From: a virus
Length of the DNA stretch: 18,762 nucleotides
IMG/VR virus record: IMGVR_UViG_3300045988_018182
Location: 1 to 18,762 of that record
Direction: 5' to 3' (one strand)
The notes below the pieces were generated by a model. It was not told where the DNA came from. It did not search any database and saw only the letters and a list, made by a program, of their open reading frames with translations. Position numbers and translations under genes: made by a program. Shown in pieces: positions 202 to 18,762 of the stretch. Each line of letters starts with the position of its first letter. Position 1 is the first letter of the stretch.

Positions 202-234
202 GTAGTTATCAACTTCAAGGGAAGGAAAAATAAA

Positions 235-480
235 ATGATGATTTCAAATATGACTCTCAAGGAAAAGAATGAATTTCTCGCCACTTTGTGGGATGACCCG
301 TCTGTAACGCTTCATGGCGTCAAGGACGGTGTTACGAGTTCGATTGATCGTGATCAGGCCGTTGATGATTACGGCATGGCTCTATATGATTCGTATCAAT
401 TCCTTTTGCCTTATGAAACGGATGACTGTTTGCTTCTGTTTTCTGCTGAGGACTTGGAAGTGTTCGCTCGGACGTGGTAA
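235..480 (+). CDS. Hypothetical acidic early protein (81 aa), left-terminal gene
   Basis: ATG 235 (a second ATG at 238) follows the ITR-encoded SD AAGGGAAGG. The longer track ORF 10..480 is a stop-free ITR artefact. By my count there are about 16 D/E against about 5 K/R. No recognisable family. It is the only plus-strand gene and converges on the endolysin gene. Confidence 0.6.
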   Translation: MMISNMTLKEKNEFLATLWDDPSVTLHGVKDGVTSSIDRDQAVDDYGMALYDSYQFLLPYETDDCLLLFSAEDLEVFARTW

Positions 481-1595: not shown

Positions 1596-2663
1596 CTATT
1601 TTCCTAACAATTCACCGATGATCAGGCCGAAATCGGCCTTGACCTGTGAGTCATCAAATCTTATTTTGCCCAGTCGGTAGCCGGTGGTGAGTCGCCGTAT
1701 GATATCATCCGATTTTTTGACGTACCATGTTTTTTCGTCAACATGATTGGGGTCGAGCGTGTAGACGGGGCGAGTATTGTCTTTCGGAATACGTCGTGAA
1801 ACATATTGTGAAACATGCCCGTCACGTTCGGACACGGAAACCCAAATACCAAAACGCGCATAATCGGTAGTGTCCAAAACATAAGACAGTCCGCCGTCTG
1901 CTGGAATGGGGGCTAGTAGCGTGTCGGATTCGTCACGGAATTTATTGCGTATTGCATAGTCCGCGTAATCCCCGTCGTACTGCTCCAAAAATCTACCGAA
2001 TTTTGACTTGGCGACTTTCGCGCTGAATCCGCCGTAATCAGCTAATTCCAAACACACGAACCCCCCGCAATACAACTTATATTGTTGCTGATTCGCTTGC
2101 TGAGCACCAATGTCCAACCGGTATTTCGCGAAATAGGGGTTCGCTTTTTGCACCGCGTTGGACAAAAACAGCACTTTTGTCCTATCTTGCCAACGGTCTA
2201 CCGTGTTATAAAACTCGCTGAAACTGTTTACCTCATTGCTCAAAAACCTGAGGTTGTCGGGAAAGATTTCGTCGAAAACAATCAAGTGCACTTTAGGGTA
2301 GGCTACCGATTTCAGACCACCGGCTTGTGAGAGTGCGACGAAATAGCAGCATGTACGCCAATCTTTTTCATCCCATGATGTCTTATGAATCTGTCCTTTT
2401 TCGCCATTCACGCGAAACTCATACTGTGGAAAAAATTCCTGAATGTCCTTGAAAAACGTTTCCTTGCGGTGTTGTTCTACGTCCGTGCGACGAAGATAAA
2501 TAAATTCATGGCCATTTTTAATAAACTCTTTAATGCCGTATCGTTTTGCGGCAAAAGTCTTGCCAAGGCCACGTGCGCCGATCACGAAATTCCACGGCGC
2601 GTTACGGGTGAGCAAATTATGCAAATCGTAGTAGTCGTCTTCAGCCAATGTCTGTAACGCCAT
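1596..2663 (-). CDS. DNA encapsidation (packaging) ATPase, phi29 gp16-like (355 aa)
   Basis: WNFVIGARGLGKTFAAKRYGIKEFIKNGHEFIYLRR closely parallels phi29 gp16 LNFVIGARGIGKSYAMKVYPINRFIKYGEQFIYVRR (Walker A). Walker B is HLIVFDEIF. SD AGGAGG. Confidence 0.93.
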   Translation of the reverse strand: MALQTLAEDDYYDLHNLLTRNAPWNFVIGARGLGKTFAAKRYGIKEFIKNGHEFIYLRRTDVEQHRKETFFKDIQEFFPQYEFRVNGEKGQIHKTSWDEKDWRTCCYFVALSQAGGLKSVAYPKVHLIVFDEIFPDNLRFLSNEVNSFSEFYNTVDRWQDRTKVLFLSNAVQKANPYFAKYRLDIGAQQANQQQYKLYCGGFVCLELADYGGFSAKVAKSKFGRFLEQYDGDYADYAIRNKFRDESDTLLAPIPADGGLSYVLDTTDYARFGIWVSVSERDGHVSQYVSRRIPKDNTRPVYTLDPNHVDEKTWYVKKSDDIIRRLTTGYRLGKIRFDDSQVKADFGLIIGELLGK

Positions 2664-2678
2664 GTCTGCTCACCTCCT

Positions 2679-2722
2679 AAAACAATGGGGAGCGTAACGT
2701 CATGACCACCGTTACACTCCCC
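2679..2722 (-). terminator. Intrinsic terminator-like hairpin + U tract directly upstream of ATPase SD
   Basis: Minus-strand RNA GGGGAGUGUAACG (2722-2710), a 10-nt loop, CGUUACGCUCCCC (2699-2687), then AUUGUUUU (2686-2679), then AGGAGG. The stem is perfect only on the minus-strand RNA: the one odd position is G.U there and C/A on the plus strand. Confidence 0.6.
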
Positions 2723-2765
2723 TATTGGTTACGGTCGGCTCAAGGGAAGTTATCACATGCCGACA
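2679..2765 (-). ncRNA. Candidate ~86-nt small RNA or leader with an anti-SD apical loop (targets polymerase and early-gene SD regions)
   Basis: The extended -10 at 2780-2772 places the transcription start site (TSS) near 2766-2764. Hairpin 1 is GUCGGC (2764-2759) / GCCGAC (2739-2734) with the loop AUGUGAUAACUUCCCUUGA, and the terminator hairpin follows. Loop nt 2753-2740 are exactly complementary to mRNA 14365-14352. Confidence 0.4.
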
Positions 2766-2771
2766 CGTATC

Positions 2772-2780
2772 ATTATACCA
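2772..2780 (-). promoter_or_regulatory. Putative extended -10 promoter TGgTATAAT
   Basis: The minus strand reads TGG TATAAT 7 nt after the lysin stop codon (2789-2787). There is no convincing -35. Confidence 0.45.
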
Positions 2781-2786
2781 CACATA

Positions 2787-4001
2787 TTAGAATGCGGGCG
2801 GATTCGATCTACCATCCCACACGGTCAGCAGCGAGTATGCCTGATTGTACCGGCTTACGTATGGCTGGAACGGGTACGTGCTCAAAATATTGGTTTTGAG
2901 CTGCGCGAGATTCGACGCTTTCGGCACCTTCAAGGCGTTTGCCGGCGACTGGTGATATGCGGTCACCCACAAGATTTGCATTTTATCATCACCATACTCT
3001 TGTGGATATCCCGCGTAGTCTTCGGCAAACTGTTTGCGCTGCCCCTCATGCGATTCGCCACGTGCCGCCCATGTCCGGAATGCCGCTGCTTCCGTCGAGG
3101 TGAGCGGTCGAGTGAAATCGCCCCCCGATTCCATGAGTCCCGCAATCTCAGGAGCCGTGCTTTTGAATGCGGCGTAGCCGGTAGGGTCGGCTTCCCGCAT
3201 CTTGTTAAGCACTTGCAAGCGTCGCCCGAAACTCCATTGTGCAATACCGATGCCTTGGAGATTGGCTGCTTCCACTGCATCCCACTGCAGACCGGATTCA
3301 ACCGTGCCGATCACATAGAGCGCATACGAGTTTTCCGGTGATGTCGAGCTGGATGGGTGCCCTTGGCCTTGTGAGTCTGATGGTTGCCCCTGTGATGCTT
3401 TTTCAGAAAAATTGTTGGCCGTTGTCTTATAGAAAATACGAGTATGTGACCCGCTATTGTCCGTTTCATGCAAGTATAGGTTGTCTCCCTGCCAGTGTAT
3501 CCACGCCCCCCTCCGTCCGGAATCAGGGTGTCCCTGATTGTTGTCGCCGGTGGGATTGTCCACGTCCGACTTAGGCATGGTACGGGGATGCAAGTAGCCT
3601 AACAGTCCGTCGATTGGGAACCATTTGAGCGCACTTGCGTCCGGATTTTGCGTGATGATATAAATGCTGTTGTTTTTCACGCCCTCATTGCCGGCGACTA
3701 TGGCAACATGAGTGTATGGAGTATACGTGCCGTACCCCCATATTGCCACGTCACCCGCCACCGGCGAGTATCCGCTTGCTGGAATTCGCTCGTACACTTG
3801 CTCGCACCGTGCGGATACGGGGTATGACGTGTATAAGCCTCCCGCATAGCCGGTTGGGGTTATGCAGTCCTGAATGGACATGCCGTACATGTCCATACTG
3901 TATTTCGCCCACAGGTCCCAGCATTGCGCGCCATACGCGCCGTCCATGTCCCAAAAACGGTTTTTCGTCTGATCAATCCATTGATTAAAAGTAATAGCCA
4001 T
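2787..4001 (-). CDS. Virion-associated peptidoglycan hydrolase (phi29 gp13 position): N-terminal CHAP + C-terminal lysozyme/transglycosylase-like domain (404 aa)
   Basis: The N-terminus FWDMDGAYGAQCWDLW ... HVAIV is a CHAP domain paralogous to the endolysin's. The C-terminal part has IGTVESGLQWDAVEAANLQGIGIAQWS, a lysozyme-like catalytic-Glu context. It lies between the appendage and ATPase genes, as gp13 does. Confidence 0.7.
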   Translation of the reverse strand: MAITFNQWIDQTKNRFWDMDGAYGAQCWDLWAKYSMDMYGMSIQDCITPTGYAGGLYTSYPVSARCEQVYERIPASGYSPVAGDVAIWGYGTYTPYTHVAIVAGNEGVKNNSIYIITQNPDASALKWFPIDGLLGYLHPRTMPKSDVDNPTGDNNQGHPDSGRRGAWIHWQGDNLYLHETDNSGSHTRIFYKTTANNFSEKASQGQPSDSQGQGHPSSSTSPENSYALYVIGTVESGLQWDAVEAANLQGIGIAQWSFGRRLQVLNKMREADPTGYAAFKSTAPEIAGLMESGGDFTRPLTSTEAAAFRTWAARGESHEGQRKQFAEDYAGYPQEYGDDKMQILWVTAYHQSPANALKVPKASNLAQLKTNILSTYPFQPYVSRYNQAYSLLTVWDGRSNPPAF

Positions 4002-4035
4002 ATCACCATTATAGGCGATATGGCTATCCGTGTGG

Positions 4036-10596: not shown

Positions 10597-10637
10597 CTAA
10601 AAACAATAGGTGCGAGAATTATTCTCTCGCACCTATT
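10597..10637 (-). terminator. Hairpin + T5 after capsid gene, fused to tail-knob SD
   Basis: AATAGGTGCGAGA (10605-10617) / TCTCGCACCTATT (10625-10637), a 13-bp stem. On the minus strand it is followed by GUUUUUAGGAGG and ATG 10588. Confidence 0.6.
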
Positions 10638-12720: not shown

Positions 12721-12753
12721 GAAAATAAAATGACCCTCCAATCACGGAGGGTC
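12721..12753 (-). terminator. Rho-independent terminator ending the early/replication unit
   Basis: Minus-strand GACCCUCC (12753-12746), loop GUGAUU, GGAGGGUC (12739-12732), then AUUUUAUUUUC. Confidence 0.8.
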
Positions 12754-12889
12754 TAAATTGTCCTATCAGAGCGCGAAAGTGATAATCGTAGGGCACTACC
12801 GCCACGATAGCAAATCATGGTTGGCGGCGTTTTCAGCCGTGGCAGTCCAACCTATGTCGCTCCCAGTCGAAAATCGACGCTCACAGGAC
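12722..12889 (-). ncRNA. Candidate ~165-nt structured RNA (pRNA-like) with its own promoter and terminator
   Basis: TGcTATAAT (12904-12896) places the TSS near G12889. The 5' GUCCU..GAGCG (12889-12885, 12882-12878) pairs with CGCUC..AGGAC (12773-12769, 12764-12760). Internal helices are GUCGA-UUU-UCGAC (12878-12866) and CUGCCACG/CGUGGCGG (12845-12838 / 12806-12799). GGUUGG (12852-12847) is complementary to CCAACC (12824-12819). No ORF. Confidence 0.45.
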
Positions 12890-12895
12890 ATGATT

Positions 12896-12904
12896 ATTAT
12901 AGCA
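12896..12904 (-). promoter_or_regulatory. Putative extended -10 promoter TGcTATAAT overlapping the polymerase stop codon
   Basis: The minus strand reads atgcTATAAtaatc. The polymerase stop TAA (12899-12897) lies inside the hexamer. Confidence 0.45.
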
Positions 12905-14348
12905 TAACCATTGTGCCGTAGTCGTCCGCGACTTGCACGCCATGTCGAAACAGCTCGTAGGGGATGGGCTGTGTGAATTGGCTTCCAGCCATGCAGATAT
13001 CAACTTCGCCATCATCCTTCCACCCTTGATATCGGTTCATGCCTAAAATGGTGAGCTTTTCGTATCGGGCTGCGATTTTCCATTTGCCTAGTTCGGTGGG
13101 GTGGGTTTCGCATGATTCCACCGGTTCCCAGCCGCTCAAAATGCACCCGTCCGTGTTCGCGTACAAGAGCCGATCGGAGTTGGCATGGCAGACGTCCATA
13201 AGCTTTCGCCTTGCGTAGGCGTTGACCCATACGGGTACGGGGAGGAAATCGGTTTTCAGATTCGATTCCTCTCTCTGTGCTACATCCCAGTCCAAGGTCA
13301 TACCGTCTTTTGACGTGGGAAGCATGACGGCACCTTTGGGTAGACTCGCCATTTTGCCTACGAGCGCGTTCATGACCAGTTTCGCCATTTGCCGTTTCTC
13401 GCCCGTCGCCTTCTGCTTCAAGTCCCCCCATTCATCAACGAACGAGCGGAAAAACCCCTTGGAGCGCCGGAACTTCCACCCCCGCACATGCCTGTATACG
13501 CTCACCGTATAATTCTCATAAAGCAATTTTTGGTCAATGTCAGTCAATACTCTTGTAACATACCCCCTAGTGCTGGTGAGTCGATTGAGTCCATACACGC
13601 TACGATTGTCGAGCAGAAAAGGGTATCCGTTTGGCTTCAATTCCGCTCGAAACGTAAGTTCGTCGCAATGCAACGGCATATCATCATCCTGTTCATACGC
13701 ACCGTCGTAAGGTTCAGGCAATCCCCATGGAAGCCATTCGTTTCGCAATATGCTCGGATACATCGAGTTGCAGTCAACGTCAACGGCCTTGCCGTACGTC
13801 CCCTCTCTTGCAACCATGAAACCGCCGATATAGGCATCATGCAATGACTTTTTGGTTTCGGGCTTCAGTTGGGGGAATTTGTCGTAATACCACTTCCACT
13901 CGCCGGACGCAAACGCTTCCATGCTCGCCCCACCGGCAGTGATCTTGCACAAGCCGCGCTGATCGTACTCGCTTAAAATGTTGAGCAGTTGAGCATCAGT
14001 CATGGTAAGCTTGCAATTTTCCCGCAAAAGATTCGAAATATCAAAAAACCGTGCGGAATTCTCACGGTCGATGCGGACGGTAAGACTAAAAAACTTGCCT
14101 TTTTGGGATACTATCGCATCCCAGCTCAGGTTAGCGTTATGTTCATTGTGGGGTAGGGAGTGTACGACATGCGCTATAAACGGGTCGAGTAGATCGGTAT
14201 TGGTCACGTAGACGGTGAGTTTGCCGCCCTTCATGATGGACGCCAAAAGGCGGTTAGGTTGGATAACATCACGTAGCACGGTGCCGTCCGTGCATCGTAT
14301 GACATTATCCACACACCATAAGCCCACTCTATTGTCATGCACTATCAT
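12897..14348 (-). CDS. Protein-primed family-B DNA polymerase (phi29 gp2-like, 483 aa), divergent active-site motifs
   Basis: Collinear with phi29 DNAP from memory: ITAGGASMEAF / MTAGSDSLKGF; AYIGGF (YxGG); DVDCNSMYPS (motif A); PLHCDELTFRAELKPNGYP (TPR1 region); KLVMNALVGKMAS (motif B); LLYANTDGC (motif C); LGKWKIAARY (KxY). Confidence 0.92.
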   Translation of the reverse strand: MIVHDNRVGLWCVDNVIRCTDGTVLRDVIQPNRLLASIMKGGKLTVYVTNTDLLDPFIAHVVHSLPHNEHNANLSWDAIVSQKGKFFSLTVRIDRENSARFFDISNLLRENCKLTMTDAQLLNILSEYDQRGLCKITAGGASMEAFASGEWKWYYDKFPQLKPETKKSLHDAYIGGFMVAREGTYGKAVDVDCNSMYPSILRNEWLPWGLPEPYDGAYEQDDDMPLHCDELTFRAELKPNGYPFLLDNRSVYGLNRLTSTRGYVTRVLTDIDQKLLYENYTVSVYRHVRGWKFRRSKGFFRSFVDEWGDLKQKATGEKRQMAKLVMNALVGKMASLPKGAVMLPTSKDGMTLDWDVAQREESNLKTDFLPVPVWVNAYARRKLMDVCHANSDRLLYANTDGCILSGWEPVESCETHPTELGKWKIAARYEKLTILGMNRYQGWKDDGEVDICMAGSQFTQPIPYELFRHGVQVADDYGTMVML

Positions 14349-14375
14349 AGTATAACTTCCCTTGATTGCCGTCCG

Positions 14376-15341
14376 CTACTTTTCCAGCGCGCCCACTTCC
14401 GCCATCCACCGGTCGAACTGCCGCCGTGAGCGTTGATAACCCTCACTGTTGTCCCTAAAAACCGACGTGAAGCCGTGTCGAACGGGGTCATACACCGTCC
14501 AATCAAACACGATTCGTGGGGCGTCGGTCTGTTCGATAAAAGCGCGTTTCTGCGCTGCGGATAGTTGACGGAATCGTTTCAGCCGTTTCGAGCCGAGTGA
14601 GGTGGCCAAGATTTTTTCAAAAACCTCATAACGGCCACGTGACATGTAAGATGGCCATTCGTGCTCACCGTACAAGTCTTTGCTCTGTTTGCCTGTTCCC
14701 TGTTTGTTAGACTTGCGTTTCTGTTCGGTGCGCAATCCCAAGATTTCGGCTGCGTCATGCATTTGCTCAAGCAGCTCGTTACGATGTCCGCTTTCCAATT
14801 GGGAGCGCACGAACGCTTCGTCGCTCAGCACGTTGGTCATTTGCAGAAAGTCAGTGAGTTTTGATGGGATGATCTGAGTGCGTCCGAAACCCTCACCGGT
14901 AGTGCCGGTGATTTCGGCCAAACGCTGCTCGTACACGCTACGTTGCGGCATAGCCTGTTCTTTGTTCCAGTCGTTGATCTTCTGCCGTGCCGCATTGATC
15001 TTCCGCTGCTGCTGTCTTAGCAGTTTGCGTCTTTTCGCCACCGGTTCCGCAGCGATTTGCGCGTCCGAGAGTAGCGTGCGCTGGGCAAACATGATGTCTT
15101 TTTTCGTCGGCTTTTCCACGGCGGTGGCATGGTATGGGGTTGCTTTCGCTTCCGCTATGGCCTGTTTCCGCTGCTTCTCCCACTCCTGACCTAAGGTTTT
15201 CGCAATATTGACCAATTGTTTGTCAGCGGTTTTTGCAAGATTCGAGTGAGAGTACGAGCCGAGCTGTTTGATATTACGTGCTGCGCGTGCTTGCGCGGCT
15301 TGATGTGCCTTGACGTGATTCCGGTTACGACTGCGAGACAT
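14376..15341 (-). CDS. Putative terminal protein (phi29 gp3 position, 321 aa)
   Basis: It lies immediately upstream of the polymerase gene, as in phi29 and Cp-1. It is basic, K/R/Q-rich and helical-looking. I moved the start to ATG 15341 (SD AAGAGG, 8-nt spacer) from the track's GTG 15350. No sequence motif confirms the call. Confidence 0.6.
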   Translation of the reverse strand: MSRSRNRNHVKAHQAAQARAARNIKQLGSYSHSNLAKTADKQLVNIAKTLGQEWEKQRKQAIAEAKATPYHATAVEKPTKKDIMFAQRTLLSDAQIAAEPVAKRRKLLRQQQRKINAARQKINDWNKEQAMPQRSVYEQRLAEITGTTGEGFGRTQIIPSKLTDFLQMTNVLSDEAFVRSQLESGHRNELLEQMHDAAEILGLRTEQKRKSNKQGTGKQSKDLYGEHEWPSYMSRGRYEVFEKILATSLGSKRLKRFRQLSAAQKRAFIEQTDAPRIVFDWTVYDPVRHGFTSVFRDNSEGYQRSRRQFDRWMAEVGALEK

Positions 15342-15363
15342 AGTGCGCACCTCTTAAGATGGC

Positions 15364-15389: not shown

Positions 15390-15421
15390 AATAATGAATG
15401 CTACTTAATGATTATAGCGTG

Positions 15422-15859
15422 TCACTTACTCGCTTCGTCCACCGGCTCGATGCTGAAGAACTTGAAGCCGCGGCGGGAACGACGTTCCACTACCTTGATG
15501 GCAAGCGGGGCTTCCCAAGTGTTCGGGGTTCCGAAGATTCCGAACATGGTGTTCAGTCCGGCAGCGAGAGTTGGGGAGGTGGCCGCATACGCCTTGTTAT
15601 CATCGGTTACGATGATGACGCGCACGGTGTTGGAGATTTCTCCCGTCTGATCATCCGTCACTTGTACGGACTGTGCAACGGCGTTCACCATGTTCAGGGT
15701 CTCGTTCAAATGTTCGTCAAGCTTTTCGGCGTTCTGAAGCGCAGAGTAGAGCTTGATCTTGCCTTCACGAGTGGAAGTGTCGATGAAGTGTTGGACGGTG
15801 CCAAGCTCGCCATTTTCGGTGTTGAATGCGGCTAGAGCTTTATTGTTGGTGTTTTCCAT
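15422..15859 (-). CDS. ssDNA-binding protein, phi29 p5-like (145 aa)
   Basis: MENTNNKALAAFNTE...EGKIKLYSA...IKVVERRSRRGFKFFSIEP parallels phi29 p5 as I recall it (MENTNIVKATFDTE...EGQIKIFNA...VKVVQGTSSKGNVFFSLQ). It is syntenic, upstream of TP and polymerase. SD AAGGGAAG (15875-15868). Confidence 0.6.
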   Translation of the reverse strand: MENTNNKALAAFNTENGELGTVQHFIDTSTREGKIKLYSALQNAEKLDEHLNETLNMVNAVAQSVQVTDDQTGEISNTVRVIIVTDDNKAYAATSPTLAAGLNTMFGIFGTPNTWEAPLAIKVVERRSRRGFKFFSIEPVDEASK

Positions 15860-15898
15860 AATATTATCTTCCCTTATATTGTTGTTGTTATTTTGTTC

Positions 15899-15944: not shown

Positions 15945-16241
15945 TCAATTTTCGGCGTGTCGTTTTGTATGTTCTTCGGGGTCCCATTCTTGCGGCTCCC
16001 CGAAAGTCGCATACTTGTAAAAAGTTTCCTCATTCATGGAGACTTTTTGCGAAAAAATGTGAATAGAGCGTGGAATGAAATTAGGAAACAGTTTCTTGGC
16101 ACGAATCGAATATGCACGCGCGTCCTTAAGTCGCCCGTCAATGACATGCTCGGCTTCCATAAAATCGCCATCAACAAGTTCCATGCCCTTGAGCACGGCA
16201 TACACGCGCGTACGAAAAATGTCGGTTTTGATTCTAGCCAT
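15945..16241 (-). CDS. Putative dsDNA-binding, p6-like early protein (98 aa)
   Basis: It occupies the phi29 gene 6 position (upstream of p5) and is of similar size. There is loose similarity to my recollection of p6 (MA+...I.+T.V....VDG..., acidic C-terminal tail PQEWDPEEH). This is weak evidence. Confidence 0.35.
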   Translation of the reverse strand: MARIKTDIFRTRVYAVLKGMELVDGDFMEAEHVIDGRLKDARAYSIRAKKLFPNFIPRSIHIFSQKVSMNEETFYKYATFGEPQEWDPEEHTKRHAEN

Positions 16242-16246
16242 ACGCG

Positions 16247-16765
16247 TTACCTCCCCTGTAGTAAGATTTTCTGCAATTCAGTATCATTATATCGTGTCGT
16301 GTCCAGTCTGTCAAAATTTTTAAACACGGCAATAATAAGATTCTGAGCTTCCGGGCTGTTGAAAATCGTGCAACAATCATACGACGTACCGCCCTTGACG
16401 GCGCAGACGGCGCACCATGCGATCAGATTCGGCGGGTTCACAGTGCCGTCCAAGTATTCCACGTCATACGTGCGGGACAGGGCGGCGGCGAGTCCATCCC
16501 ATGCGGTCAGGCTGCCGCAAATCTGCGATACGACAATTATTGCTTGCGGAAACCATGTGCTAGCCCCTTCGCGCCACAGTTCGCATAGCATGGTAACCGC
16601 ACGGCAGCATGTTTCAAAATCGCCATACCCCATGTCATACCGTTTCAGATTCAGGTCACGTTTCCGGCCTTTCACAGCCTTGACAATACGGGGTGATTCC
16701 ATGATCGCATCATCAAACCGGCGCATGCGATAGATTGGCGTCCGGTTATTGCCACGATTAAACAT
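16247..16765 (-). CDS. Hypothetical Cys-rich early protein (172 aa)
   Basis: I chose the start at ATG 16765 (MFNRGNN...), which overlaps the upstream stop by 8 nt (ATGTTTAA). The track's longer version (to 16897) would overlap the upstream ORF by about 140 nt. No family recognised. Confidence 0.55.
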   Translation of the reverse strand: MFNRGNNRTPIYRMRRFDDAIMESPRIVKAVKGRKRDLNLKRYDMGYGDFETCCRAVTMLCELWREGASTWFPQAIIVVSQICGSLTAWDGLAAALSRTYDVEYLDGTVNPPNLIAWCAVCAVKGGTSYDCCTIFNSPEAQNLIIAVFKNFDRLDTTRYNDTELQKILLQGR

Positions 16766-18286: not shown

Positions 18287-18529
18287 TCAGTAGGTCAAGG
18301 CTTCAGCTACCGCTTCTGCGATAGTGTCTCCAGTTCCCAAGACAACAACAGGATGACAATGTCTAGCATAAACGGCATAATACACTTCAACCGCATCCAC
18401 CTCACGCCCATCTTCGGTAGTACGATAGTATGGAATCTCAACCCTTGTGACGTAGGCACGTGCCATCAATTCCCGCACCTCATCGACACTAACGCCCGCT
18501 TCTTTTGCGATCCGCTTATAGCTTTCCAT
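18287..18529 (-). CDS. Hypothetical right-terminal early protein (80 aa), possible small HTH
   Basis: Its ATG (18529-18527) and SD are the last nucleotides of the right ITR. The N-terminus YKRIAKEAGVSVDEVRELMARA looks helix-turn-helix-like, which is weak evidence. Confidence 0.55.
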   Translation of the reverse strand: MESYKRIAKEAGVSVDEVRELMARAYVTRVEIPYYRTTEDGREVDAVEVYYAVYARHCHPVVVLGTGDTIAEAVAEALTY

Positions 18530-18561
18530 TTTATTTTCCTTCCCTTGAAGTTGATAACTAC

Positions 18562-18570
18562 ACTATAACA
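18562..18570 (-). promoter_or_regulatory. Putative inward extended -10 promoter in right ITR (copy)
   Basis: Mirror copy of 193-201. It would drive the early operon that starts at ATG 18529. Confidence 0.4.
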
Positions 18571-18624
18571 CAAACAAAAACACGACACGCCCGAAAACAA
18601 ACAACACGCCCAAAATAAAAAAAC

Positions 18625-18653
18625 TTGACAGGCTGGGCTAAAAAAAATACAAT
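18625..18653 (+). promoter_or_regulatory. Outward-facing sigma70-type promoter in right ITR (copy)
   Basis: TTGACA 18625-18630, 17-nt spacer, TACAAT 18648-18653. It points toward the right terminus, about 100 nt away. Confidence 0.5.
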
Positions 18654-18762
18654 AGAGGCATAAACACAACAAACAGTCAACAAAGACACAGAACAAAAAA
18701 AAATAATACACATATAAAAAAAACCACAAGGGAAAATCTTCACACAAACCCATACCCCTCCC

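Follow-up and report, generated by a model that had tools for sequence, protein, structure and literature searches.

The question raised by the stretch of viral DNA held as IMG/VR record IMGVR_UViG_3300045988_018182 is what is encoded in the 123 nucleotides (nt; positions 2664–2786) between its CHAP lysin gene and its packaging ATPase gene. The whole stretch of 18,762 nt, hereafter the window, is the genome of a phi29-like podophage of a Bifidobacterium host, with 87% identity over 97% of its length to phage BP1, and nearly all of its genes lie on the minus strand. In this gap, referred to below as the element, two hairpins and a U-rich tail lie between an extended -10 box and the Shine-Dalgarno (SD) sequence of the ATPase gene. 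The loop of its first hairpin is complementary to regions where translation of this phage's early and replication genes begins. The reading favoured here, which we place just short of probable, is that the element gives rise to an RNA, either an mRNA leader or a small RNA (sRNA), whose loop would base-pair with those early start regions. The label 'early' for the replication gene block is itself carried over by analogy with phi29. The parts of the element are as follows.

2782–2772, minus strand: extended -10 TGTGGTATAAT, a predicted promoter containing TGgTATAAT (2780–2772), with no good -35.
2764–2734, minus strand: hairpin 1, stem GUCGGC (2764–2759) / GCCGAC (2739–2734), with an apical loop of 19 nt.
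2758–2740, minus strand: loop 1 AUGUGAUAACUUCCCUUGA, a UCCC-type loop labelled 'anti-TIR' (TIR, translation initiation region).
2733–2723, minus strand: inter-hairpin linker, variable in sequence and in length (2–21 nt in relatives).
2722–2687, minus strand: hairpin 2, a 13-bp G+C-rich stem (5' arm 2722–2710, 3' arm 2699–2687).
2709–2700, minus strand: loop 2 GUGGUCAUGA, 10 nt, capping hairpin 2.
2686–2679, minus strand: U-rich tail AUUGUUUU, a candidate weak intrinsic-terminator tail.
2678–2673, minus strand: ATPase SD AGGAGG, followed by the start codon at 2663–2661 (gene 1596–2663).

Folding of the minus-strand RNA 2679–2766 with RNAfold produced exactly these two hairpins at -36.3 kcal/mol (z-score, z = -4.5), and none of 200 shuffled sequences was as stable. 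An earlier, sequence-only reading of the window had described the same two hairpins, and its coordinates for the promoter, hairpins, tail, SD and a 14-nt match discussed below were exact against the sequence. Hairpin 2 contains one U.G pair where the opposite strand would have A/C; the claim that this hairpin is perfect only as minus-strand RNA was further borne out by the covariation and the G.U pairs of the relatives. The tail of the window and those of the relatives (AUUAUUCA, UCUUUCAU or ACUAGUUUU) contain 4–6 U per 8 nt with the SD immediately after, so termination at hairpin 2 is probably partial. The stem of hairpin 2 measured 11–16 bp, and a consensus terminator scan made no call because the loop is 10 nt long. 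In the folds, the U-rich tail paired partly with the A-rich end of the linker.

Comparison of loop 1 with the start regions of the window, which include those of the single-stranded DNA-binding protein (SSB) gene and of the genes encoded in the inverted terminal repeats (ITR), revealed the following predicted sites.

14345–14366, minus strand: DNA polymerase start region; 14 nt (14365–14352) complementary to loop 1, and the loop CAUG can cover the start codon; duplexfold -24.0 kcal/mol.
15856–15877, minus strand: SSB start region; AAGGGAAG (15875–15868) complementary to loop 1; duplexfold -14.1.
18526–18550, minus strand: start region of the right ITR-encoded gene; UCAAGGGAAG (18548–18539) complementary to loop 1; duplexfold -17.9.
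213–237, plus strand: start region of the left ITR-encoded gene, a mirror copy inside the 234-nt ITR.
16236–16262, minus strand: start region of an early 98-aa gene (15945–16241), the predicted second-best sense site for loop 1; duplexfold -20.7 with G.U, computed for the window.

Judged by its sequence, loop 1 is antisense to an initiation region in full, with an anti-SD UUCCCUU, a 7-nt spacer and CAU. When the closing base pair was included in duplexfold, the pyrimidine tract came to lie on the SD, and CAUG, conserved at the 5' side of the loop, on the target start codons. Loop 1 and the polymerase start region share an exact inverted match, the 14-mer TCAAGGGAAGTTAT, present at 2740–2753 on the plus strand and at 14352–14365 on the minus strand; the ITR and a terminator aside, the window has no second perfect dispersed inverted repeat of 14 nt or more. 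The sequence-only reading had reckoned with about one such 14-mer match per genome by chance and had placed the significance in the positions of the two copies. The positional argument stands, whereas the chance estimate was too pessimistic for this motif: with up to 2 mismatches, 0.07 matches were expected, and 2 were reached in 1 of 200 shuffles. The shorter motif AAGGGAAG occurs in five copies against 0.33 expected, a number that none of 200 shuffles reached; four copies, in sense orientation, precede the starts of polymerase, SSB and both ITR genes by 7–11 nt, and the fifth is the antisense of loop 1.

Across the whole window, ranking of sense-strand sites for loop 1 placed the polymerase (-21.6 kcal/mol) and the 98-aa gene (-19.3 kcal/mol) as the best two, followed by the ITR gene (-16.7) and SSB (-13.6), and late start regions all fell between -5.1 and -10 kcal/mol. 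When the loop was shuffled with its composition preserved, the observed energies were matched by 0 of 1000 shuffles for the early start regions and by 339 of 1000 for the late ones. The late genes carry SDs of the GGAGG/GAAAGGA type, a difference in SD type that had been pointed out before, and the complementarity of the loop does not extend to them. Pairing with the 16S tail is poor for the SDs of polymerase (-6.4) and SSB (-6.3) and good for the late SDs.

For the comparative analysis, relatives were assembled from BP1, BD811P1-3 and 80 (later 85) IMG/VR genomes retrieved via the portal protein. More than 100 gut-metagenome contigs (IMG/VR, here L011–L127) carry a portal 94–97% identical to that of the window, and this phage group seems abundant and poorly described. 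A second IMG/VR query, with the BD811P3 portal, returned mostly the same contigs, and its only useful new lineages were L104, L108 and L099. The IMG/VR relatives formed two clades, corresponding to two types of the element (I and II), which are 14–28% apart at other loci.

The element was present in all 73 loci that cover the lysin-ATPase junction, and the order of promoter, hairpin, hairpin, U-rich tail and SD, as first described for the window, was kept in every relative covering the site, with the SD 0–19 nt past hairpin 2. Two main forms could be distinguished: type I, found in the window, BP1 and the BD811 phages, and type II, found in 31 loci. In type I, stem 1 is GUCGGC/GCCGAC, loop 1 is AUGUGAURACUUCCCUUGA and the loop of hairpin 2 is GGUGGUCAUGA; in BD811-like lineages loop 1 is longer by 10 nt at its 5' end. 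The stem 1 of type II differs and is yet complementary, (U)GGCRG/CYGCC(A), with G-C to A-U compensation; its loop 1 reads ..UAUGUGAUGACCUUUCC..UUGAAC.. and its hairpin 2 is a different one, GGUGGAGGGCGUGCG-AGUCAUGG-CGCACGCCCUCCAC. The promoter motif T[G/A]TGnTATA[A/C]T was retained in 68 of 68 distinct sequences, with a freely variable spacer of 5–8 nt to stem 1. A loop-1 core of GAURAC, YUUYCCC and UUGA is common to both types, and UUCCC lies in the apical loop of nearly all sequences, the exceptions being BD811P2 (UUCCA) and three type II variants (UUUCCA/UUUCCU).

Among 23 distinct type I sequences, 98.7% of the pair cells held standard pairs, compared with 31–47% in slid-partner controls. 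Five pairs of hairpin 2 were changed on both sides, and the covariation score of type I was reached by none of 500 shuffles; stem 1 of type I was retained with G.U variants. The G.U pairs fit the minus strand only, and the selected molecule is therefore the minus-strand RNA. A mixed MAFFT alignment of types I and II was structurally inconsistent in RNAalifold, so type I was analysed alone and type II was linked to it by a covariance model: the type I model retrieved the type II copies at the same site with E = 5e-5 to 2e-3, one per genome and nothing else in those genomes. Neighbouring genes differ by 10–28% among the compared genomes, and the conservation of the element is therefore meaningful; the -10 box and both loops are kept even between lineages whose neighbouring genes are 14–20% apart. 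Searches of Rfam revealed no family match for it (only chance-level matches at E <= 10). The element was absent from the more distant honeybee phage BadAargau2, from Actinomyces phage Av-1 and from Curtobacterium phage Reje, where the ATPase gene abuts or overlaps the upstream gene without a gap; this marks it as an insertion specific to the human-gut Bifidobacterium clade, outside the core packaging machinery.

The core of loop 2, GUCAUG, was invariant across type I, type II and BD811-like sequences, bar one GUUAUG, although the stem below it covaries. GUCAUG is self-complementary (UCAUGA; UCAUGG with wobbles), and neither an RNA partner nor a function was found for it. In the window, loop 2 with its 3' arm (CAUGACGUUAC) resembles the ATPase start (CAUGGCGUUAC).

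The complementarity of loop 1 could also be followed in the relatives. Full-loop duplex energies were too noisy for scans of type II, in which loops are 30 nt long and many coding sites reach about -20 kcal/mol, and contiguous-match counts were used instead. A start region was counted in a genome when no more than 5% of composition-matched shuffled loops paired with it as well as the real loop, with the following outcome.

SSB start region: 36/38 type I genomes and 27/27 type II genomes.
ITR-gene start region: 15/16 type I and 14/14 type II.
Polymerase start region: 36/36 type I and 5/23 type II.
SD of the ATPase gene itself: 10/42 type I and 7/31 type II.

At the SSB site, a match of 7–9 nt was retained in all type I genomes proper (AAGGGAAG against loop CUUCCCUU), and the type II site GGAAAGGU(UA) matched the invariant loop part GACCUUUCC in 26 of 27 genomes. 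At the polymerase site, contiguous matches of 9–14 nt were found in type I and of 8–13 nt in the BD811-like lineages. The extended polymerase matches occur in three registers: UCAAGGGAAGUUAU, 14 nt, in type I; GGAAGUUAUCUAU, 13 nt, in L066, which uses the BD811-type 5' part of the loop; and CAAGGGGGAAAG, 12 nt, in L063, where five C in the loop stand opposite five G in the target. In no genome with data did the longest contiguous match to the polymerase, SSB and ITR sites fall below 8 nt. The complementarity to early SD regions that had been noticed in the window is thus conserved, for the ITR genes and SSB in both types and for the polymerase in type I, lies above composition-matched shuffles and is restricted to early start regions. 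The annotated polymerase starts of L006 (BP1, ~14651) and L009 (BD811P2, ~3273) look too short; they were moved upstream of the annotated ATG, by 36 nt in BP1 and by ~114 nt in BD811P2 (to a GTG), on the basis of N-terminal homology to the window and the conserved AAGGGAAGTTAT.

A concerted change of loop 1 and SSB site between types I and II was at first sight a candidate for covariation, and it was downgraded since the types are clades at all loci. The three-register matches at the polymerase appear more telling than this change. On the other side, the polymerase is not a universal target: type II mostly offers 4–7 nt, and the C to A change in BD811P2 is uncompensated in its polymerase site.

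On the favoured reading, the 2664–2786 gap would encode a structured RNA that starts from its own extended -10 promoter and carries one hairpin at its 5' end, then a G+C-rich one and last a U-rich tail; we infer both the transcription from this promoter and the 3' end. It would form the 5' leader of the ATPase-holin-endolysin mRNA and, if the weak terminator fires, also occur as a free RNA of ~87 nt. The sequence-only reading had offered a stand-alone sRNA or a leader; with a weak terminator, the mRNA leader is as likely as the sRNA. In the infected cell, loop 1 would act in trans, pairing with start regions among the early and replication genes of the same phage, and this pairing would repress them by blocking 30S binding and/or by triggering cleavage, the mode of action of UCCC-loop sRNAs of Gram-positive bacteria and of the c4 RNA of P1/P7. 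The predicted sites comprise SSB and the ITR-encoded genes in all lineages, to which the polymerase would be added in type I and BD811-like lineages. The late-phase timing first proposed is unsupported: the inward promoter TGTGTTATAGT (190–200) for the terminal gene in each ITR, presumably an early promoter, shares the TGTGnTATAnT form with the extended -10 of the element.

Several points weigh against this reading. The promoter form is that of the ITR promoter, so there is no sequence reason to call the RNA late, and the weak U-rich tail suggests that the free sRNA may be a minor product. A pyrimidine-rich, anti-SD-like loop is expected to fit purine-rich SDs to some degree, and shuffling of the loop corrects for composition and not for the shared ancestry of the genomes. 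Since each tested locus splits types I and II into distinct clades, the simultaneous shift of loop and SSB site can be scored only once. Most type II genomes show only 4–7 nt to the polymerase site, and the lengths of the loop/polymerase-site match with the genome's own and with other genomes' partners differ modestly (9.3 vs 7.9 nt). Uncompensated loop changes could be observed in BD811P2 (C to A), in L012, L028 and L059 (an extra U) and in L015 and L073 (GCUUU), and a matching extra A in the target was found only in L037. The invariant GUCAUG of loop 2 has no explanation in this model.

The alternative that survives best is a purely cis-acting leader or attenuator. The element would supply an internal promoter for ATPase, holin and endolysin, hairpin 1 would stabilise the transcript, hairpin 2 with the U-rich tail would be a leaky terminator or attenuator for its own promoter and for read-through from the late operon, and the loops would bind proteins, with an antiterminator, a nuclease or the ATPase itself as candidates; the match to early sites would be a by-product. 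Such an arrangement would be like lambda pR'-tR' ahead of its lysis genes. This reading is unlikely as the whole explanation, though far from negligible. The location directly upstream of packaging and lysis genes, with an SD 0–19 nt past the hairpin in all relatives, agrees with it, as does the recurrence of hairpin, U-run and SD at the late junctions 10637–10605 and 4028–3993. A loop 2 that is conserved without any RNA partner found would suit protein binding, and conserved loops are not unique to the element, since the terminator loop (GUGAUU) of a neighbouring RNA gene, described below, is also conserved. The element is moreover a lineage-specific insertion, and relatives couple the ATPase directly to the upstream gene. 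What a cis leader leaves unexplained is why loop 1 is the reverse complement of the whole early start region, why the loop beats shuffles on early and not on late sites, and why extended matches recur in different registers. A conserved antiterminator pairing was also missing: the loop-1 pyrimidines could pair with the 5' arm GGGGAG in type I, and this is impossible in type II (GGUGGAGGG). Action in cis is compatible with the favoured reading, as a leader can also act in trans.

A second cis mechanism, sequestration of the ATPase SD, is improbable. Here loop 1 (ACUUCC) would pair with the SD (GGAGGU) across hairpin 2 as a pseudoknot and throttle translation of the ATPase. Such pairing can be drawn, with 6 bp including one G.U in type I and 6–9 bp including 2–4 G.U in type II; it was chosen by some minimum-free-energy folds (L007, L014, L019) and reached -14.3 kcal/mol by duplexfold in the window. 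It was no better than composition predicts, however, with a mean z of -1.3 and counts of 10/42 and 7/31 genomes, against z of -3 to -5.6 for the early sites. The SD variants GGAAGU, GGGGGU and GAAGGU came without matching loop changes, and in most folds the stable hairpins leave the ATPase SD free.

About as improbable, and placed marginally lower, is mimicry of the 16S 3' tail, by which loop 1 (GAUAACUUCCCUUGA) would imitate the actinobacterial 16S 3' end, which we take to be GAUCACCUCCUUUCU, and act as a decoy for a host toxin nuclease, a maturation factor or a phage factor and not as antisense. Loop 1 is identical to this sequence at 10 of 15 positions, type II shares GAUnACCU and CCUUUC, and mimicry would account for the conserved GAUGAC as well as for the pyrimidine tract. 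The likeness is imperfect and was spotted only in hindsight, the analysis yielded no candidate partner that would bind the loop, and the loop pairs with early start regions much better and with late ones much worse than the real 16S tail, which a faithful mimic would not do.

The location beside the ATPase gene also invites the idea that the element is a packaging RNA (pRNA) like that of phi29, since phi29-type packaging ATPases normally need one. The two conserved loops and the self-complementary loop 2 could be taken in the same sense. This idea was rejected, and we consider it very improbable: single-sequence and consensus folds gave two tandem hairpins with no terminal helix or three-way junction, and the element, which has no match to RF00044, is absent in BadAargau2, Av-1 and Reje, which share the ATPase type. 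Kissing of loop 1 (AUGAC) with loop 2 (GUCAU), within or between molecules, is not conserved; the pairing is available in many genomes, but the window, BP1, BD811P1-3 and others have AUAAC, AUUAC or AUGCU with loop 2 unchanged. A far better pRNA candidate is located at 12760–12890 on the minus strand.

Least of all can the conserved sequence be the start region of a plus-strand gene, the alternative of the sequence-only reading, in which the window reads tcaagggaagttat-cac-ATG followed by a 194-codon open reading frame (ORF, 2757–3341): across the other 41 type I genomes this frame runs to 6–65 codons, with 22 of these genomes at 10 codons, the ATG is missing from 30 of 31 type II genomes, there is no PHROG match, and the G.U pairs show selection on the minus-strand RNA. 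An upstream ORF from the AUG of loop 2 was likewise rejected as coding, with a length of 6–94 codons, a stop at -24 to +242, a frame that is not conserved and occasional fusion to the ATPase.

The pRNA candidate is a separate unit of ~165 nt that separates the end of the polymerase gene from the late operon. It comprises a conserved promoter TGCTATAAT (12904–12896, minus strand), an RNA of about 12890–12760 and a strong terminator at 12753–12732. Its fold (z = -4.5) shows a terminal helix that joins the 5' and 3' ends (UGUCCUGUGAGCG / CGCUCUGAUAGGACA), a small hairpin, a bulged helix and a second hairpin. The bulged helix has a 7-nt bulge, ACUGCCA, above an E-like hairpin, which caps the helix, and the D-like hairpin has a 5-nt loop, GUGGC. 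In 67 distinct sequences, GCCAC at the bulge was complementary to the D-loop GUGGC; the two change together to ACCAC/GUGGU in two lineages (BD811P2 and L086), and G.U intermediates were seen in seven sequences. The 7-bp stem of the D-like hairpin covaries richly, and a unit with a similar terminal helix occupies the corresponding position in BadAargau2. The sequence features, in the hallmark layout of the phi29 pRNA, make this unit a strong candidate for a packaging RNA. The phi29 pRNA is represented by Rfam family RF00044 (PMC5066667), and Rfam searches gave no RF00044 match for the ~165-nt unit. According to a 2024 review, pRNA is known only from Bacillus phages (PMC11476376), and our literature search found none outside them. 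If correct, this would be the first packaging RNA outside Bacillus phages and would bear on the long-standing question of how general pRNA is in phi29-type motors. The loop GUGAUU of the terminator behind the candidate (12738–12747, minus strand) is conserved, and its stem switches between CCCUCC/GGAGGG and CCCCGC/GCGGGG in relatives. GUGAU occurs both in the conserved 5' half of loop 1 and in this terminator loop.

The element itself resembles, to differing degrees, several described regulators. UCCC-motif sRNAs of Gram-positive bacteria include S. aureus RNAIII and RsaA/E/G, Listeria LhrC and B. subtilis RoxS (PMC2790875, PMC4132741, PMC5419742). They are recognised by a hairpin at the 5' end, a terminator at the 3' end and, within the best-conserved stretch, an unpaired UCCC, with helices that vary, and they bind SDs and block initiation (PMC2790875). 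The element similarly has a 5' hairpin, a G+C-rich hairpin with a weak U-rich tail, a UCCC loop as its most conserved part and complementarity to several SDs. The mechanism of these sRNAs is Hfq-independent, which fits the Bifidobacterium host group, as this group is, to our knowledge, generally said to lack Hfq. Unlike the UCCC-motif sRNAs, the element is phage-encoded and has no sequence or Rfam kinship with them; its predicted targets are the phage's own early and replication genes, its loop spans the whole start region from SD to AUG, and it may be mainly a 5' leader.

The functionally nearest phage precedent appears, by analogy, to be the c4 RNA of P1/P7, a phage antisense RNA whose loops pair around the ribosome binding site of a phage mRNA and so block its translation (PMC12197685). 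In the element too, the loop is complementary to the predicted ribosome binding sites of its targets. The c4 RNA is cut from the same operon transcript as its target ant and serves the immunity of a temperate phage, whereas the element belongs to a lytic phage and its targets lie on other transcripts 11–16 kb away, at 14.3, 15.9, 16.2 and 18.5 kb and, on the other strand, at 0.2 kb, with none downstream in the ATPase operon. No c4 family match was found in the Rfam searches. The absence of any description of such an RNA, as the sequence-only reading had it, held in that there was no Rfam match and none was found in two reviews (PMC11476376, PMC12197685).

Less direct parallels are found elsewhere, both in proteins and in leader RNAs. 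T4 has an endoribonuclease, RegB, whose cut site is the GGAG of early SDs, and a translational repressor, RegA, that attaches to early start regions; RegA/RegB share the logic of singling out early mRNAs via their start regions, with proteins acting there and an RNA loop proposed here. In lambda pR'-tR' (6S RNA) and HK022 put, a promoter is followed by a short structured RNA and a terminator before late or lysis genes, and put consists of two hairpins. Unlike in these systems, neither an antiterminator protein nor downstream terminators were evident for the element, there was no similarity to put, and neither system explains a loop directed against initiation regions. With the phi29 pRNA, the element shares that it is a non-coding RNA of a phi29-like phage adjoining the ATPase gene, and none of the structural features of the pRNA was found in it.

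The phage is a virulent podophage of a human-gut Bifidobacterium clade. The window is ~76% identical to BD811P1-3 and more distant from BadAargau2; BP1 infects B. pseudocatenulatum (U19) and BD811P1-3 infect B. dentium (DA811), both being cultured isolates. The replication genes span 18.5–12.9 kb, with SSB at 15422–15859, the DNA polymerase at 12897–14348 and, between them, a gene at 14376–15350 that is the probable terminal protein. Past this block the gene order is capsid, tail, portal, collar, tailspike and CHAP lysin (2787–4001), followed by the packaging ATPase (1596–2663, minus strand), which matches the terminase phrog_2150 at 5.5e-60, and then by holin and endolysin. Two more long perfect hairpins were found at late junctions, at 10605–10637 (minus strand, capsid/tail) and 3993–4028 (minus strand, tailspike/lysin), and in both places a U-run and then a start region come next; partial termination or RNA processing there probably sets the ratios of the mRNAs. 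A TATAAT (TGCTATAAT in BP1) immediately behind the SSB stop codon (15398–15421, minus strand) is kept in the window, BP1, BD811P3 and BD811P2, which suggests an internal promoter for the terminal-protein/polymerase pair.

The ITR occupy 1–234 and 18529–18762, are 234 nt long and are 99% complementary. The window is probably truncated at both ends, and BP1 runs ~290 nt further at the left end. Each ITR also carries a near-consensus outward TTGACA-17-TACAAT (138–110, minus strand; 18625–18653, plus strand), which would transcribe toward the genome end. The phi29 A1 promoter, which drives pRNA, is likewise oriented toward the genome end.

In Bacillus phi29-like phages, temporal control runs through the transcription factors p4 and p6. 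Our literature search found no sRNA described in phi29-like phages, and temporal control is not known to have been described for the abundant gut Bifidobacterium podophages. Against this background, it is possible, and we advance it with some reserve on the grounds of sequence comparison, that the RNA, or the leader of the packaging and lysis mRNA, shuts down or meters translation of the phage's own SSB, DNA polymerase and ITR-encoded genes. This would add a post-transcriptional early-to-late layer that is new to the group, with the special early SD (GGGAAG/GGAAAGG) making these genes addressable. If so, the element would be a compact and easily testable case of a lytic phage that regulates its own replication genes by an antisense loop, it would explain the unusual SD of the early genes that pairs poorly with 16S rRNA, and it would represent an RNA counterpart of T4 RegA/RegB.

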